A stretch of DNA of 29,216 nucleotides. Source: an uncultured Lachnospiraceae bacterium. Lineage in GTDB: Bacteria; Bacillota; Clostridia; Lachnospirales; Lachnospiraceae. Positions 18,394 through 23,459 of this stretch are shown piece by piece. The notes under the pieces are model-generated. The model was not told the DNA's origin. It worked only from the letters and a program-made list of their open reading frames with translations, and searched no databases. The stretch spans positions 1 to 29,216 of the forward strand of contig CAMOQY010000001.1 in the NCBI GenBank assembly GCA_946623295.1, in the 5' to 3' direction. The translations under genes and the position numbers were made by a program. The first letter of the stretch is position 1, and each line of letters begins with the position of its first letter.

Positions 18394-19515
18394 ATGGGAA
18401 AAGCAGTTAAAAAACTGAAAGAGATCTTTTTGCCCGACATCAGCGCTGCGGAAAAGCGCGAGATGGATCGCGAGACCGTGAAAAACATCCGCACGGTCGC
18501 AAAGATAGCGTGCGTTATTGAGACCCTGACACTTTTGACGTTTGCATTATCCGTAAGGACTATTGACGCGTCGGCAAGGATCAGCATGGTAAGCGTTGCC
18601 TTCTGCGTGGCGCTGTGTCTGTCTGCTGTTCTGATAACCGGGAGCATCCAGAAAAGGGATGCCTACAATCACTACGGCGTTCTCGTTTTCAGCGCAGCGT
18701 TTTTCCTGATGCTTGCAGCGTGGGGAGGCTGGGTCTCGTTCCGTCACTACGTTTCCGGCGAACAGATGATAACCTTCTACGTGATCATGGTCTGCGTAGT
18801 CTGCTTTGTGACATTTTATCCCCTGGTGGGAGCGCTTCTCGTAGCGATGTGCTTCGGGGCATTTTACCTTACGCTTTTCCTCCACGACGGCGGAGCGGAT
18901 ATGGTATTCTTCAATTACATTACCTTCGGAGTCATATGCTGCGCGCTGATAATAGTCAGATTTCACAGACAGCTGGAGACCGTCAGAAAGGCGCTGAGTC
19001 TCGAAGAGACAAATAACAAGCTTCAGTATATTTCCAGGCACGACGCGCTGAGCGGACTTCGCAACCGTGCGGCATTTGCCGAGGACCAGGAGAAGTTTTT
19101 CGGAAAGACGATCACGATCCTGCTCTCCGATATCAATTATTTTAAGGATATAAACGACACGCACGGACACGTCGTGGGAGATGCGGCCATAGTTGCCGTC
19201 GGAAAGTTTATCAGAGAATATTTCCCGGCTGCCGATGCCTACCGGTACGGCGGCGACGAATTCCTGCTTATTATCGAGGGCGCAAGGACGGATATGTTTG
19301 AGTTTGTAAGCTCTGAGTCGAGAGGCTTTTCCATACCCGTCAAGGAGGGCAATCTTATCATAGATATTAGCTTTGGCACCGCTACCGGATCGCCTGCGGA
19401 TAAAACCGAGCTCAGGCGGCTTATCGCGGAGGCGGACGAGGAGCTCTATATGATCAAAAAAGAGATCCACAAGGATGACGATGCGGACCAGGCTCCGGTT
19501 TCGACGGATAACTGA
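18394..19515 (+). CDS. Membrane-bound diguanylate cyclase (about 6 TM plus GGDEF)
   Basis: HDALSGLRNR, LSDINYFKDINDTHGHVVGD, YRYGGDEF, ADEELY; N-terminal half hydrophobic. Confidence 0.92.
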   Translation: MGKAVKKLKEIFLPDISAAEKREMDRETVKNIRTVAKIACVIETLTLLTFALSVRTIDASARISMVSVAFCVALCLSAVLITGSIQKRDAYNHYGVLVFSAAFFLMLAAWGGWVSFRHYVSGEQMITFYVIMVCVVCFVTFYPLVGALLVAMCFGAFYLTLFLHDGGADMVFFNYITFGVICCALIIVRFHRQLETVRKALSLEETNNKLQYISRHDALSGLRNRAAFAEDQEKFFGKTITILLSDINYFKDINDTHGHVVGDAAIVAVGKFIREYFPAADAYRYGGDEFLLIIEGARTDMFEFVSSESRGFSIPVKEGNLIIDISFGTATGSPADKTELRRLIAEADEELYMIKKEIHKDDDADQAPVSTDN

Positions 19516-19561
19516 CCGCAGGGACTTTAAAAGCCGCGCCGCGGCAGCAAGACCAAAGTAC

Positions 19562-19588
19562 AGACCCGCGCAGGATGGGCGCGGGTCT
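19562..19588. terminator. GC-rich hairpin between convergent GGDEF and TIR-LRR genes (no U-tracts)
   Basis: AGACCCGCGC-aggatgg-GCGCGGGTCT, 10-bp stem abutting the TIR-LRR stop codon. Confidence 0.55.
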
Positions 19589-20835
19589 TATTTTACCAGA
19601 ACGACGTCAAAGGATGCGTTTTCTCCCCATGTCAGGGGAACCATATCGGCGCTCACCGTGACGGTGCGCAGCGAGGGGAGGTTCCTCAGGGGCGTGAGGT
19701 CGCGGATGCCGCTGTACTCCAGATGGAGCGTTTCGAGCGAGGGAAGATCGCTGAGCTGCGCAAGATCAAGCTGCCCGCAGCCTGCAAGCGAGAGCTCGCC
19801 AAGAAGCAGATGATCTGAAAGACCGGATATGTCCTTTAGCGGCTGAAGATCCAGCCACAGCGCTTTAAGGCACGGCATCCGGTGAATAAGCGAAAGATCG
19901 GTTATGACTCCCGGCCCGGGAGCGGCTGTATTGACAGCCCATATGCCGTCAGAGACTGAGATGGCGCCGGCGCGGTCGGCAGTCATATTTCCGCAGAAAT
20001 ACAGCTCTTCGATCTCTATCAGTCTTTGTTCGGAGATCACGGGACTGCTGTCGCTCAGCCTGCTCCGGACGGCTTTTTCCTGGAGCTCGTCGGGAAAGAC
20101 TATATCGCCCGTCAGTTCGTTCATCCATTTCTCCCGGTCAACTTCTCCGTGTATGCCAAGATACTGATCTACGGGCGGCGCGGATATTTGCGCGTCGGAA
20201 GGATCCCCGTTTCCGAAGATACGGATCCTCCCGGATAAAAGGCCGTAGAGCAGTCCGGCGCTCAGCATCAGAAGCAGCGCGGAGAGAGCGAAAAAAACAG
20301 GGACCGGATCGATTCCCTCGAGCCTTCTGCGGAAGTAGATCCCGGTAAGCTGGTGGCTGCTCAGGATCGCTCCGGCAAGATCGTCGGGTGTGACTGCAAG
20401 GGAGAGCTGCGAGGCGGCAAGCGCGGCGCGCCCGGCGGCCGAGAGCCTGCGGTCAGTGGAGCCGCTGCCGCGGACCTGGATGTATATGGAGTCTCTCAGG
20501 ACTATCGCCCAGTAGTCGGGCAGCGGAGAGGGATCGAGCCTGACCACGATGATGTGCTTCTTTAAAAGAGTGGCGGTTTTGATCTCGGAGTAGCATATGG
20601 GAGATGAGATGGAGTCCGCGGACAAAAAGAAGATAACGCAGCCGCACGCGCGGAGACGTCTCTCTGCCTGGGGCGCAAGCTCCCTGCCGCAGGGGATCCC
20701 CTCGTCAAACCACACCCTGCAGCGGTGCTCGTGCAGAATGCGCAGGGTATCTGCCACATCATCATATCTCGTCTGTGAATAGCATGCGTATACGTAGGGA
20801 CGGTCGCCCTCATAGGGTCTGAAGGATGAACTCAT
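19588..20835 (-). CDS. TIR domain - single TM - leucine-rich repeat protein (415 aa; 'TIR-B')
   Basis: TIR_2-like PYEGDRPYVYACYS...VWFDEGI...VIFFLSADSISSPICYSEI (Glu84 retained); TM ~178-200 after RRR; LRR cap VFPDELQEKAVR and 22-aa repeats such as QLDLAQLSDLPSLETLHLEYSG; GGAGG SD. Confidence 0.85.
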   Translation of the reverse strand: MSSSFRPYEGDRPYVYACYSQTRYDDVADTLRILHEHRCRVWFDEGIPCGRELAPQAERRLRACGCVIFFLSADSISSPICYSEIKTATLLKKHIIVVRLDPSPLPDYWAIVLRDSIYIQVRGSGSTDRRLSAAGRAALAASQLSLAVTPDDLAGAILSSHQLTGIYFRRRLEGIDPVPVFFALSALLLMLSAGLLYGLLSGRIRIFGNGDPSDAQISAPPVDQYLGIHGEVDREKWMNELTGDIVFPDELQEKAVRSRLSDSSPVISEQRLIEIEELYFCGNMTADRAGAISVSDGIWAVNTAAPGPGVITDLSLIHRMPCLKALWLDLQPLKDISGLSDHLLLGELSLAGCGQLDLAQLSDLPSLETLHLEYSGIRDLTPLRNLPSLRTVTVSADMVPLTWGENASFDVVLVK

Positions 20836-21641
20836 GGCTGACCTCCGTAGAGGACTACCCTGTACCCGGCGCTGTGAAGACTGTCGGCGGCCGGAGCGAG
20901 GGCCTGCGGTATCTCGATCGTAGTGAGGGCCGGGAAAAGGGAAAATTCGGAATTATCCCCCGGCATGGAGGAAAAACGCAGAGTGGTGATCTGTTCGAGA
21001 CGCTGCAGCGTCAGCGGGGCGCCTCCGGTTGCTCTGCGCGCCGCCTGCTCGATCACCGGATCGGAGATAGTTACCATATCTCCGGAGGCGTTTGAAAACC
21101 AGCCAAGCAGATCGCCGATAAGGACTGCCGCCAGTATCGCAAGCGTCAGCGCGAAGATCCAGGCGGAGAGCTTTCTTTTTGAAGATGAGACATTTCTTCG
21201 CTCCTCGTCCAGAAGATCCTGGGAAAAACCGGGAGTGCGGATGAGAGTGCTCTCGATCCCGCGGATATCCGTATGCGGCTCAAAGCGGACATGGCTCACC
21301 TTTTCGGTGAGATCCATAGTCTTTCCGCATTCGTCGCCGTCCATGTCCATGCTGATCACGGGACAGCCTGCGGCGCAGCAGAGCCGGGTCCCGTTTCTGA
21401 ATTCCGGATCGTCCTCAGCTTCGAGAGTAAGATAAATAACGGCAAGAGAGGCTTTTGCAATACGTCCCGCCGCGATATCCTCCGGCACTGAATCGTCATC
21501 ATACCATATCCGGAATCCGCGCGCTGTGAGCGCCCCCAGAAGCTGTGATACAGCGATCCGGTCCTTTTTTGAAAAACAGAGGACCAGATAAGGCTTGTCG
21601 CCGTAGTACGGCGGGTAGATTTGCGTCAGCTTTTTTCCCAT
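20832..21641 (-). CDS. Degenerate TIR domain - single TM - short LRR protein (269 aa; 'TIR-A')
   Basis: PPYYGDKPYLVLCFS...FRIWYDD...VIYLT; TM ~158-182 after KRK; LRR cap ISDPVIEQAARRA...QRLEQITTLRF; ATGA overlap with TIR-B. Confidence 0.8.
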   Translation of the reverse strand: MGKKLTQIYPPYYGDKPYLVLCFSKKDRIAVSQLLGALTARGFRIWYDDDSVPEDIAAGRIAKASLAVIYLTLEAEDDPEFRNGTRLCCAAGCPVISMDMDGDECGKTMDLTEKVSHVRFEPHTDIRGIESTLIRTPGFSQDLLDEERRNVSSSKRKLSAWIFALTLAILAAVLIGDLLGWFSNASGDMVTISDPVIEQAARRATGGAPLTLQRLEQITTLRFSSMPGDNSEFSLFPALTTIEIPQALAPAADSLHSAGYRVVLYGGQP

Positions 21642-21656
21642 GCGCTAAATGGATAT

Positions 21657-23459
21657 TTACTTCGCAGCCTCGAATTTCGCCATGTAATATTTCTGACGTT
21701 CGGCGTAGAGAGCGTTGTAGGTCTCGTTTGAGCCGCTGTGCAGCATCTGCTTGTATTCATGCTGTATCTGGGCTATTTCTGGATCGTGCTCGCAGAGCGC
21801 GTAGATACCGATGTTTGAGCACTGATCGGATATTCTCTCCACATTTACGAGGATATCCGAGAAGATAATGCCCTGGATGGCGCTGCAGGTGCCGTCTTTG
21901 AGGCGCTGAAGATGGTTTTCGCGCATGCCGGCCACGAGGTTGTCGATGACCTCCTCTACGGGCTCGATGCGTGCCGCGGCTTCGGTATCGCTCTCGGAAA
22001 AAGCCGAGCGGGCGTAGTCCATGACCTCGTTAAGCGCTTCGTAGATGACCTTCAGCTCGCGCTTTGCGTAGTCGGAAAACTCAATGCCCTTTTCACGCAG
22101 CTCGCGTGCATTTTCCGTAAGATTGACGGCATAGTCGCCGATACGCTCAAACTCGGAGATGGATTTCAGATAGAAATTCAGAGTATCGTTGAAATTCTGG
22201 CTCTTGATCCTGGGGAAGAGACCGACAAGGTACTGGCTGGTGTGGTCGGCAAGCGAGTCGATGATATCCTCGTTTGCTTCTACCATGCGGATCGTATTTC
22301 CGTCGTAATTGGCGAGCACATCGAGGGCATTGTCCACTCCGTCGTGGGAGAGGTCCGCCATGGTCGAGATCGTCTTGCGCGCGGATTCAAGCGCGAGCGC
22401 GCAGGAGCTGTAAAGAGCCGTATCAAGATGGGCAAGCTGCTCGGTAAGGAGAGCCTCCTGCTTTGAAGGCGGAGCATCTTTTATGATGCGGTGGCTCAGT
22501 TTTTCGAATAAGGTGCAGAAGGGCAGCAGAAGCAGCGCCGTACTGAGTTTGAAGAGGGTGTGAGTATTTGCGATCCCTCCCGAGGTGATCGGGGAAGACC
22601 AGATACCGTCGAGCAGGGATGTGAAGCCGTGAAGGATGAGTACGGCAGCGAGGATTATCACCGCGCCTGCTATATTGAACAGGACATGCACGATACCTGT
22701 GCGCCTTGAATCCGCGCTCGTGCTGAGACCGCAGACTATAGCGGTGGTGATGCAGTCTCCCATATAGATACCGAGCAGTATGGCGTATATCGAGCCGAGC
22801 GAGAGCTGTCCCGTGACGGAGAGCGCCTGAAGTATACCGACGCTGGCCGACGAGCTCTGGATCATGAAGGCTACGCCGGTACCGGCAAGGAAGCCGAGCA
22901 GCGGCTGATCGCCGAGCGTTACGAATAGATTTGCGAAGCTTTCGGATGTCGAGAGCGGGGCGACTGCCGCCGTCATGTTTAAAAGACCGGTAAAGAGTAT
23001 CCCGAAGCCCATGGCGATCGTACCGATCGTGGCGGAATTTTTGATCTTGATGACCATTATGAAGAGAATGCCGACGACCGCTGCTATCGGAGCAAGGGTC
23101 GAGGGCTTGAATACCTGAAGGAATGATGTACCTCCGTCAATATCGAGCAGACGGATGATCTGGGCGGTTATGGTAGTTCCGACGTTGGCGCCGAGTATGA
23201 TGCCGAGCGACTGGTGGAGAGTCAGGACTCCGGCGGAGACCAGACCGGCTGTCAGAACTATTGTGGCGGTGGAGCTCTGTATAAGGGCTGTCACGAGCAG
23301 ACCAAGTATGAAGCTCAGCAGCGGATTTCCGGTCACGTGTCCCATTACGCGCTTCATCGTTCCGGAAGACTGGCTCTTGAGGCCGTCGCCCATAATGCGC
23401 ATTCCGTACAGGAACAGCGCAAGACCACCAAACAACGATATAAAATCGAATACTGTCAT
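21657..23459 (-). CDS. Na+/phosphate cotransporter family protein with C-terminal PhoU-like domains (600 aa)
   Basis: FGGLALFLYGM, two QSSTAT/QSSSASV repeats, GANVGTT, C-terminal ERIGDYAVN and ERISDQCSN; GGGAGG SD at ATG 23459. Confidence 0.93.
   Translation of the reverse strand: MTVFDFISLFGGLALFLYGMRIMGDGLKSQSSGTMKRVMGHVTGNPLLSFILGLLVTALIQSSTATIVLTAGLVSAGVLTLHQSLGIILGANVGTTITAQIIRLLDIDGGTSFLQVFKPSTLAPIAAVVGILFIMVIKIKNSATIGTIAMGFGILFTGLLNMTAAVAPLSTSESFANLFVTLGDQPLLGFLAGTGVAFMIQSSSASVGILQALSVTGQLSLGSIYAILLGIYMGDCITTAIVCGLSTSADSRRTGIVHVLFNIAGAVIILAAVLILHGFTSLLDGIWSSPITSGGIANTHTLFKLSTALLLLPFCTLFEKLSHRIIKDAPPSKQEALLTEQLAHLDTALYSSCALALESARKTISTMADLSHDGVDNALDVLANYDGNTIRMVEANEDIIDSLADHTSQYLVGLFPRIKSQNFNDTLNFYLKSISEFERIGDYAVNLTENARELREKGIEFSDYAKRELKVIYEALNEVMDYARSAFSESDTEAAARIEPVEEVIDNLVAGMRENHLQRLKDGTCSAIQGIIFSDILVNVERISDQCSNIGIYALCEHDPEIAQIQHEYKQMLHSGSNETYNALYAERQKYYMAKFEAAK

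Follow-up and report, generated by a model that had tools for sequence, protein, structure and literature searches.

A membrane-anchored TIR and leucine-rich-repeat gene pair in rumen Clostridia as a candidate outside-in receptor with likeness to Thoeris signalling

TIR domains carrying a catalytic-type glutamate cleave or cyclise NAD+ upon oligomerising; in Thoeris, the SLOG domain of ThsA binds isomers of cyclic ADP-ribose (cADPR), and SLATT effectors are thought to breach membranes. To our knowledge, the characterised bacterial TIR systems, namely Thoeris, TIR-STING CBASS, SPARTA and Cat1, all sense intracellular events. The combination of a TIR protein with a SLATT protein constitutes type VII Thoeris, in which the signal is canonical cADPR (bioRxiv 10.64898/2025.12.03.692087), and RyR-domain proteins of phages bind or cleave 2'/3'cADPR (bioRxiv 10.64898/2026.05.28.727677). 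In this article, a gene pair, A and B, is described from a 29,216-nucleotide stretch of DNA (the window) of an uncultured Lachnospiraceae bacterium (assembly GCA_946623295.1, contig CAMOQY010000001.1), encoding two proteins with an N-terminal TIR or TIR-like domain, a single membrane helix and a C-terminal ectodomain related to leucine-rich repeats (LRRs). The pair is an orphan two-gene offshoot of a larger cassette specific to rumen Clostridia, and we give about even chances to the proposal that it acts as an outside-in, Thoeris-like TIR nucleotide-signalling receptor. Literature searches for bacterial TIR-transmembrane-LRR receptors returned no description, and the cassette family is apparently undescribed; the new elements are the orphan pair, the vertical mode of its inheritance, and the finding that in two species it exists alongside a near-identical mobile cassette.

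The principal features of the pair, in window coordinates or in amino-acid (aa) positions of the two proteins, are as follows.
20832 to 21641, minus strand: gene A, 269 aa, from the open reading frame and its translation
19588 to 20835, minus strand: gene B, 415 aa, from the open reading frame and its translation
20832 to 20835, minus strand: ATGA start/stop overlap of A and B, read from the sequence, by which translational coupling is implied
20584 to 20586, minus strand: GAG codon of Glu84 of B, the putative catalytic glutamate, placed by the family alignment and the Cat1 alignment
20236 to 20307, minus strand: membrane helix of B, aa 177-200 in the model, with a hydropathy peak at 178-196, preceded by RRR
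21114 to 21170, minus strand: membrane helix of A, aa 158-176, preceded by KRK
Domain order of B: TIR_2 at aa 14-124, a 30-aa lineage-specific insert, the membrane helix, a disordered linker, then an internalin-type cap and about five LRRs at aa 243-415
Domain order of A: degenerate TIR-like domain at about aa 8-130, GFSQ at aa 138-141, the membrane helix at aa 158-176, and an ectodomain at about aa 187-269

An earlier reading of the window, made from the letters alone (the sequence-only reading), had proposed two genes joined by an ATGA overlap, and both minus-strand open reading frames and their overlap are indeed found at these positions, as are all the motifs that it quoted from the translations. 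Those of A are PPYYGDKPY, RIWYDD, SSSKRK followed by a hydrophobic helix, a cap reading ISDPVIEQAARR...QRLEQITTLRF and a C-terminal YRVVLYGG; those of B are RPYEGDRPY, RVWFDEG, YFRRR followed by a helix, a cap reading VFPDELQEKAVR...QRLIEIEELYF and a C-terminal FDVVLVK. A GGAGG Shine-Dalgarno sequence occupies 20842-20846, 6 nt 5' of the ATG of B.

The proposal that each protein begins with a TIR domain stands for B and only in a weakened form for A. The Pfam model TIR_2 (PF13676) matches B over residues 16-124 with 46.7 bits (E 5e-12) and with 50 bits in the genome scan, beyond the gathering threshold of 28 bits, whereas A reaches 17.6 bits (E 0.0058), below that threshold, and can be called TIR-like only. 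A search of PDB with the single B TIR sequence gave no match, a family profile being required. When the TIR-only profile of the B family was searched against solved TIR proteins, the best match was Cat1, a CRISPR-associated TIR protein (E 2.9e-8), followed by TLR15/2 (E 1.8e-4), MyD88 (E 1.5e-3), AbTIR (E 0.013), ThsB (E 0.037) and SARM1 (E 0.4-0.5), with TLR6 and TLR1 also matched weakly. B was modelled with AlphaFold from an alignment of 23 family sequences (mean pLDDT 83.7, above 90 in the LRR region); the model comprises a TIR-type domain of beta/alpha structure (15-120), a long helix (177-200), a disordered segment (208-227) and a confident solenoid (about 245-415). The top Foldseek matches of the whole model are the Listeria internalins InlF and InlB, the solenoid also matching InlH; since this search returned LRR proteins only and the TIR fold of the model obtained no structural match of its own, the TIR assignment of B rests on hidden Markov model and profile evidence.

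Glu84 of B lies in the motif SP(N/I)CYSEI (SPxCYSEI) of the alphaC helix, is invariant in 23 of 23 aligned family members, and aligns with the glutamate of the WCxxE motif (WCWDE) in the Cat1 TIR domain. By alignment, B keeps a catalytic-type glutamate that A, like the C proteins of the full cassette introduced below, does not have. Across the A family no acidic residue is present at the position equivalent to Glu84, and A is consequently regarded as a pseudo-TIR protein, in which the GFSQ motif is conserved. The two proteins are nonetheless paralogues, as had been suspected, with homology extending over the TIR domain, the membrane helix and the cap (hhalign probability 99.6%, E 1.6e-23).

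A similar asymmetry applies to the ectodomains, for both of which a C-terminal LRR region had been claimed. In B, four 22-residue repeats are located at residues 311-398, LRR_4 is matched with E 4e-7, and NCBIfam internalin models match partially over residues 270-395; the family profile aligns with the PDB internalins InlF, InlB and InlH (E 1e-45 to 1e-20) from the N-terminal cap onward, so that the proposed combination of an LRR cap with 22-residue internalin-like repeats is correct for this protein. The ectodomain of A amounts to about 85 residues, consisting of an internalin-like cap, weakly matched to InlC2/InlH, and one or two degenerate repeats.

With respect to topology, a single hydrophobic helix preceded by a basic cluster was verified in both proteins (KRK and residues 158-176 in A, RRR and residues 178-196 in B). 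No signal peptide was detected in A or B, and a folded domain of 155-175 aa lies N-terminal to the single helix. Lysine plus arginine residues are more numerous before the helix than after it, with family means of 3.6 versus 0.9 for B, 3.7 versus 1.9 for C and 2.5 versus 1.6 for A. The 40-residue stretch that follows the helix in members of the B family contains 23% proline, 13% threonine, 11% alanine and 10% glutamate, a composition typical of an extracellular spacer. From the absence of a signal peptide, the large N-terminal domain, the positive-inside bias, the spacer-like linker and the internalin-type ectodomain, we infer that the TIR domain is cytoplasmic and the LRR region extracellular in both proteins, in agreement with the N-in/C-out orientation put forward earlier. 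The reverse orientation, N-out/C-in, was considered and rejected in view of the domain of about 170 aa that precedes the helix without a signal peptide and of the excess of lysine and arginine on the N-terminal side.

The idea of a heteromer of A and B gains support from complex prediction, in which the pair scored ipSAE 0.66 in three runs and thereby passed its controls, the best of which scored 0.42; the mark applied is reached by 58 of 80 solved complexes and 2 of 110 mismatched pairs, counts that are only rough with user-supplied alignments. The predicted heterodimer is held together in three places: the membrane helix of A packs against that of B; the C-terminal edges of the ectodomains meet (A 244-269 with B 394-415, including the shared VVL strands); and residues 134-144 of A, containing the family-invariant GFSQ, face residues 45-49 and 55-56 of B, in the invariant DEGIP loop.

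At 90% identity, the full-length B proteins fall into about 60 clusters. Scanning a single genome of each species gave 150 relatives. A separate, exhaustive search of representatives with the B profile was swamped by giant LRR proteins, and only about 40 full-length, single-stretch B-type proteins stood among its best 150. The best 80 of the relatives in the species scan all come from metagenome-assembled genomes (MAGs) of Clostridia (Lachnospiraceae, Oscillospiraceae/Ruminococcaceae and Christensenellales), which agrees with the Clostridia-like origin suggested by the sequence-only reading, and their named sources are the ruminant digestive tract throughout (goat, sheep, cattle, buffalo, yak, roe deer and reindeer). 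Within Lachnospiraceae, a search of 201 genomes, 200 of them sampled from other genera, gave full-length B matches in the window genome and one other only.

Across the related loci the gene order is A-B-C, with one to three copies of C, and two further genes, H and S, are usually present. A lies upstream of B in 75 of 76 loci and the same 4-bp overlap recurs in 61 of 66, so that the pair is conserved as the neighbourhood check had asked; a large C gene (900-1,950 aa) follows in 74 of 76. Of the 49 loci in which the downstream sequence extends for 9 kb or more, 35 contain S; H or S is found in 34 of the 43 with enough flank on either side. The earlier statement that no usual defence partner accompanies the pair is thus true of the window itself and missed the family context, which comprises C and usually the HD-RyR and SLOG-SLATT genes.

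The C protein has an N-terminal TIR-like domain without the glutamate (hhalign 93%, E 2.7e-7 against the B TIR), one membrane helix and a very large LRR ectodomain. Each cassette has one to three copies of its gene in tandem, with products of up to 1,950 aa (L043, L055, L060, L089, L097 and others), and the C ectodomain is the most divergent part of the system, with a mean pairwise identity of 39% versus 51% for the B ectodomain and 60% for the B TIR. The S protein, of about 535 aa, joins a SLOG domain to helices of the SLATT type: in two members, YAcAr and DUF4231 are matched weakly by Pfam; its neighbours in the Atlas search carry SLATT_1, DUF4231 and LSDAT_prok; and its confident model (pLDDT 86, pTM 0.85) matches YpsA, DprA, ShosA and the ThsA SLOG domain in PDB and 'SMODS and SLOG-associating 2TM effector' proteins in the AlphaFold database. 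The H protein, of about 675 aa, carries invariant H..HD..D motifs and weak HD and RyR matches. A search of PDB sequences with the H profile found nothing, and the HD/RyR assignment is based on the weak Pfam matches, a strong RyR match in a shorter H variant, the H..HD..D motifs and the Atlas search, in which its neighbours are HD/HD-CE and RyR. In the shorter variant, of about 576 aa (L026:12612-14342, L075:15128-16855 and six further loci), the RyR domain is C-terminal and clearly matched (E 1.8e-15 and 2e-13), and similarity to the HD-RyR protein of 675 aa is no more than weak. Six cassettes additionally contain, upstream of H, a gene of about 572 aa (L033:4715-6433, L041 4550-6268, L056 7214-8935, L085 4075-5793, L086 5280-6998 and L095 6107-7855) encoding a Ser/Thr kinase (Pkinase E 8e-27), a basic cluster with one membrane helix (about residues 267-285), and the internalin-like cap and LRRs also found in A, B and C; this bacterial protein has the composition of plant LRR receptor kinases.

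The prevalence of these accessory genes bears on another explanation, in which the pair is a self-contained NAD+-depleting module: a ligand would cluster A and B, the B TIR would act as a plain NADase, and growth arrest or an abortive response would follow without messenger or effector. TIR NADases that act in this manner are established, SARM1 and AbTIR being among the profile matches, and the explanation fits a B protein that keeps its catalytic-type glutamate, a window and an orthologous locus that carry A-B alone, and the many related loci that consist of A-B-C without S or H. It is rather improbable all the same, given that SLOG-SLATT and HD-RyR genes are linked to most family members and that the full cassette is also present in both genomes with an orphan pair.

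Those two genomes hold the only loci among the 76 in which A-B occurs without C, H and S despite sequence on both sides, namely the window and its orthologue in the MAG RGIG3470 (L025). Synteny between them is shared on the B side over the GGDEF, TyrRS, PyrR and radical SAM genes; amino-acid identity between the two species is 91% for TyrRS, 89% for PyrR, 64% for B and 54% for A. The shared synteny, together with 54-64% identity for the pair versus 89-91% for TyrRS and PyrR, indicates vertical inheritance of the pair and rapid evolution. The B tree sets the two orphan copies apart on a long, fully supported branch, and the window sequence is present in sheep, bovine and rumen metagenomes. Nonsynonymous differences between A and B and their orthologues (pN 0.26-0.31) are well below synonymous ones (pS 0.70-0.76), and 20 of the 22 strain-level single-nucleotide polymorphisms inside the two genes (21 in run X4, 1 in run X2) fall at third codon positions; A and B are both under purifying selection. 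The sole A-B-only arrangement, the long branch and the faster evolution relative to the housekeeping neighbours could also suggest a decaying remnant of a cassette that has lost C, H and S and has no present function. This is the least likely of the explanations, and very improbable, in view of reading frames that are intact in two species, the selection against amino-acid change just described, and the retention of the invariant residues and of the coupling overlap. Pseudogene status as such was rejected in view of the intact frames, the pN well below pS and the third-position bias.

Regarding the surroundings of the pair, the convergent genes B and GGDEF are separated by one further feature.
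19562 to 19588, no strand: GC-rich hairpin with a 10-bp stem, a likely terminator
Its use by the B transcript may only be presumed, because the T-run is on the plus strand. A scan of 19400-22200 for sigma-70-like promoters found no site. A has no obvious Shine-Dalgarno sequence, and only 15 nt (21642-21656) separate the stop codon of the Na/Pi-cotransporter-PhoU gene from the ATG of A, such that the pair may be co-transcribed with that gene here; in the orthologous locus, the gene upstream of A is a different one. The membrane GGDEF gene (18394-19515) is kept beside the pair in the orthologous locus and evolves about as fast as B, with 63% amino-acid identity versus 91% for the adjacent TyrRS. 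In RGIG3470, an RVT_1 reverse-transcriptase gene (L001:595-1983) precedes the orthologous A-B pair by about 3.4 kb; the window does not contain it.

The window assembly also possesses a full cassette elsewhere, divided between contig C34, which ends in H, and contig C29, which carries A2-B2-C2-S (S at G000:C29 4928-6532), and RGIG3470 has its own on L077. About 10.7 kb, spanning H-A-B-C-S together with SmpB, rplM and rpsI, is 97-98% identical in nucleotides between the two MAGs (G000:C34 8933-10968 and G000:C29 2935-11583, i.e. L107 and L023, against L077 6976-17743). The similarity begins about 100 nt upstream of H, beyond which the left flanks are unrelated, and extends via S into SmpB, rplM and rpsI. 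Because the TyrRS genes of the same two MAGs are only 81% identical, the near-identical cassettes point to recent exchange, that is transfer or recombination, or else to a binning artefact. SmpB and L13 are single-copy in the window assembly and found on C29 only, which provides no argument for contamination.

The retention of both loci in both genomes would also be expected if the orphan pair modulated the complete cassette, or served as its decoy, without catalysis of its own. It would then mix with A2, B2 and C2 in the membrane and set the threshold, with the B TIR serving as scaffold only. Proteins of the A and B type are predicted to associate via helices and ectodomain edges common to all paralogues, and the loop that follows DEGIP has diverged in the window B; purifying selection has nevertheless preserved Glu84 and every family-invariant TIR residue, and we regard this role as improbable.

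The proposal of a Thoeris-like receptor can be set out as a sequence of steps. An extracellular cue, such as a phage particle, another cell or envelope damage, would rearrange or cluster A/B receptors, or A/B/C receptors, via their ectodomains; the reorganised complexes would release or assemble the B TIR, and assembled B TIRs would cleave NAD+ to give a cADPR-type signal. A would be a non-catalytic regulator of B, its pseudo-TIR being predicted to touch the DEGIP loop. The signal would be read by the SLOG-SLATT membrane protein S, resulting in a pore or depolarisation, and would be bound or turned over by the HD-RyR protein H. Because S and H are encoded in this genome only by the complete cassette on other contigs, the orphan pair would be an extra sensor acting in trans on the S and H of that cassette.

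Several observations weigh against this proposal. The neighbours in the window are housekeeping genes (TyrRS, PyrR, Na/Pi-PhoU and FolC), with C, H and S genes absent from it, and contigs C29 and C34 were placed in the same genome by metagenomic binning, on which the proposed action in trans depends. In about a quarter of the related loci, neither H nor S is within reach of A-B-C, so that a diffusible signal would not be obligatory. The window B itself has lost the family motif GSDWPxNI after the DEGIP loop, in a loop that is modelled with low confidence, and all documented transcription consists of a single 235-nt metatranscriptome contig on B. The family lies outside typical defence islands, and no relatives were found on viral contigs, which indicates that it is not phage-borne. 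PADLOC, run on A, B and the cassette proteins, returned only weak matches to ThsB (E 0.0017 for B and B2) and, for A, C, H and S, nothing except ShosA (0.013). Moreover, the 'SLOG and 4TM' Thoeris candidates of Yirmiya et al., from other phyla, showed no defence in E. coli (bioRxiv 10.64898/2025.12.03.692087).

Part of the same evidence is consistent with a non-immune surface sensor of other cells or of the envelope that tunes physiology (attachment, aggregation, or responses to protozoa or plant fibre), with TIR chemistry or TIR-TIR scaffolding as its output. Such a role, unlikely in our estimate, agrees with the housekeeping context, vertical inheritance and conserved synteny of the pair, with named sources that are all ruminant gut, with the convergent membrane GGDEF gene kept beside B in both species, with the Ser/Thr kinase-transmembrane-LRR receptor added in some cassettes, and with the lack of viral relatives. 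It is opposed by the fact that SLATT, SLOG, RyR and catalytic TIR domains have so far been tied to conflict systems, and by the mobility suggested by cassettes that are 97-98% identical where TyrRS is 81%.

The receptor proposal can be extended to immunity: rumen Clostridia would hold an outside-in innate immune receptor whose LRRs detect phage, predator or competitor at the cell surface, ahead of entry or in its absence, in which a catalytic TIR works with pseudo-TIRs, a cADPR-type signal gates a SLOG-SLATT pore, and the orphan pair is a vertically inherited sensor feeding a mobile cassette in trans. We consider this full version less likely than not. If it is true, surface recognition coupled to TIR nucleotide signalling would be a form of sensing new to prokaryotic immunity or to cell-cell sensing, and prokaryotes would have independently assembled the LRR-membrane-TIR design of animal Toll-like receptors. 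The family is confined to uncultured Clostridia, and since the named sources are ruminant gut, the system may be relevant to the pressure that phages or predators exert in the rumen; with its two proteins, the orphan pair offers a minimal system for studying the activation of TIR enzymes across a membrane.

Comparison with described systems places the pair among several families without identity to any of them. With Toll-like receptors (TLRs) it shares an LRR ectodomain, one membrane helix and a TIR domain that would be cytoplasmic, and the paired paralogues A and B recall TLR1/2 and TLR2/6. The order is inverted, however: TLRs are type I proteins with an N-terminal signal peptide and LRRs and a C-terminal TIR, whereas the TIR of A and B is N-terminal (starting at about residue 14 in B), the LRRs are C-terminal, and the proteins have no signal peptide and would be of type II. 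The repeats are likewise different, being of the 22-residue internalin type with a bacterial cap, and the best TIR match is the bacterial enzyme Cat1. The TLR-like architecture seen by the sequence-only reading therefore survives as composition and topology, and fails as ancestry in the face of inverted order, internalin-type repeats and an enzyme-type TIR. With the catalytic glutamate also kept, these sequence features point to an independent domain combination and not to orthology.

The Listeria internalins InlB, InlF, InlH and InlC2 share the cap motif FPD..A.AV... followed by 22-residue LRRs. They are adhesins or invasins secreted by a signal peptide and anchored to the wall, whereas the LRRs here follow a TIR predicted to be cytoplasmic and a membrane helix; neither a Sec signal peptide nor an LPXTG or GW anchor is present, the N-terminus being TIR and the proteins ending a few residues past the last repeat. 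The TIR NADases and cyclases Cat1, AbTIR, ThsB and SARM1 have in common with B a TIR_2-type fold with the glutamate of the (W)CxxE helix, and the activity of known members depends on oligomerisation; they are soluble cytoplasmic proteins that respond to intracellular cues, whereas B is a predicted membrane protein with putative activity.

The closest functional parallel is Thoeris. B has a TIR with a catalytic-type glutamate, and in the full cassette a SLOG sensor fused to SLATT helices lies adjacent, with several TIR paralogues per operon, as several TIRs also occur in Thoeris types I and III (which have SLOG effectors); type VII joins a ThsB TIR to the SLATT effector ThsH through canonical cADPR (bioRxiv 10.64898/2025.12.03.692087). 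In Thoeris a TIR gene stands beside the gene of a signal-binding effector, an arrangement that is present in the full cassette and absent from the window; since the window has no effector gene and the neighbours of the pair are GGDEF/TyrRS and Na/Pi-PhoU, A-B is not Thoeris by adjacency. Further differences are that two of the three TIR paralogues here are pseudo-enzymes, that an HD-RyR gene is added, that the PADLOC ThsB models barely match B, and that the TIR proteins are membrane-anchored with predicted extracellular LRRs, so that sensing would be outside-in. By analogy, the pair would work most like Thoeris-type TIR signalling with a sensor relocated to the membrane and equipped with an ectodomain.

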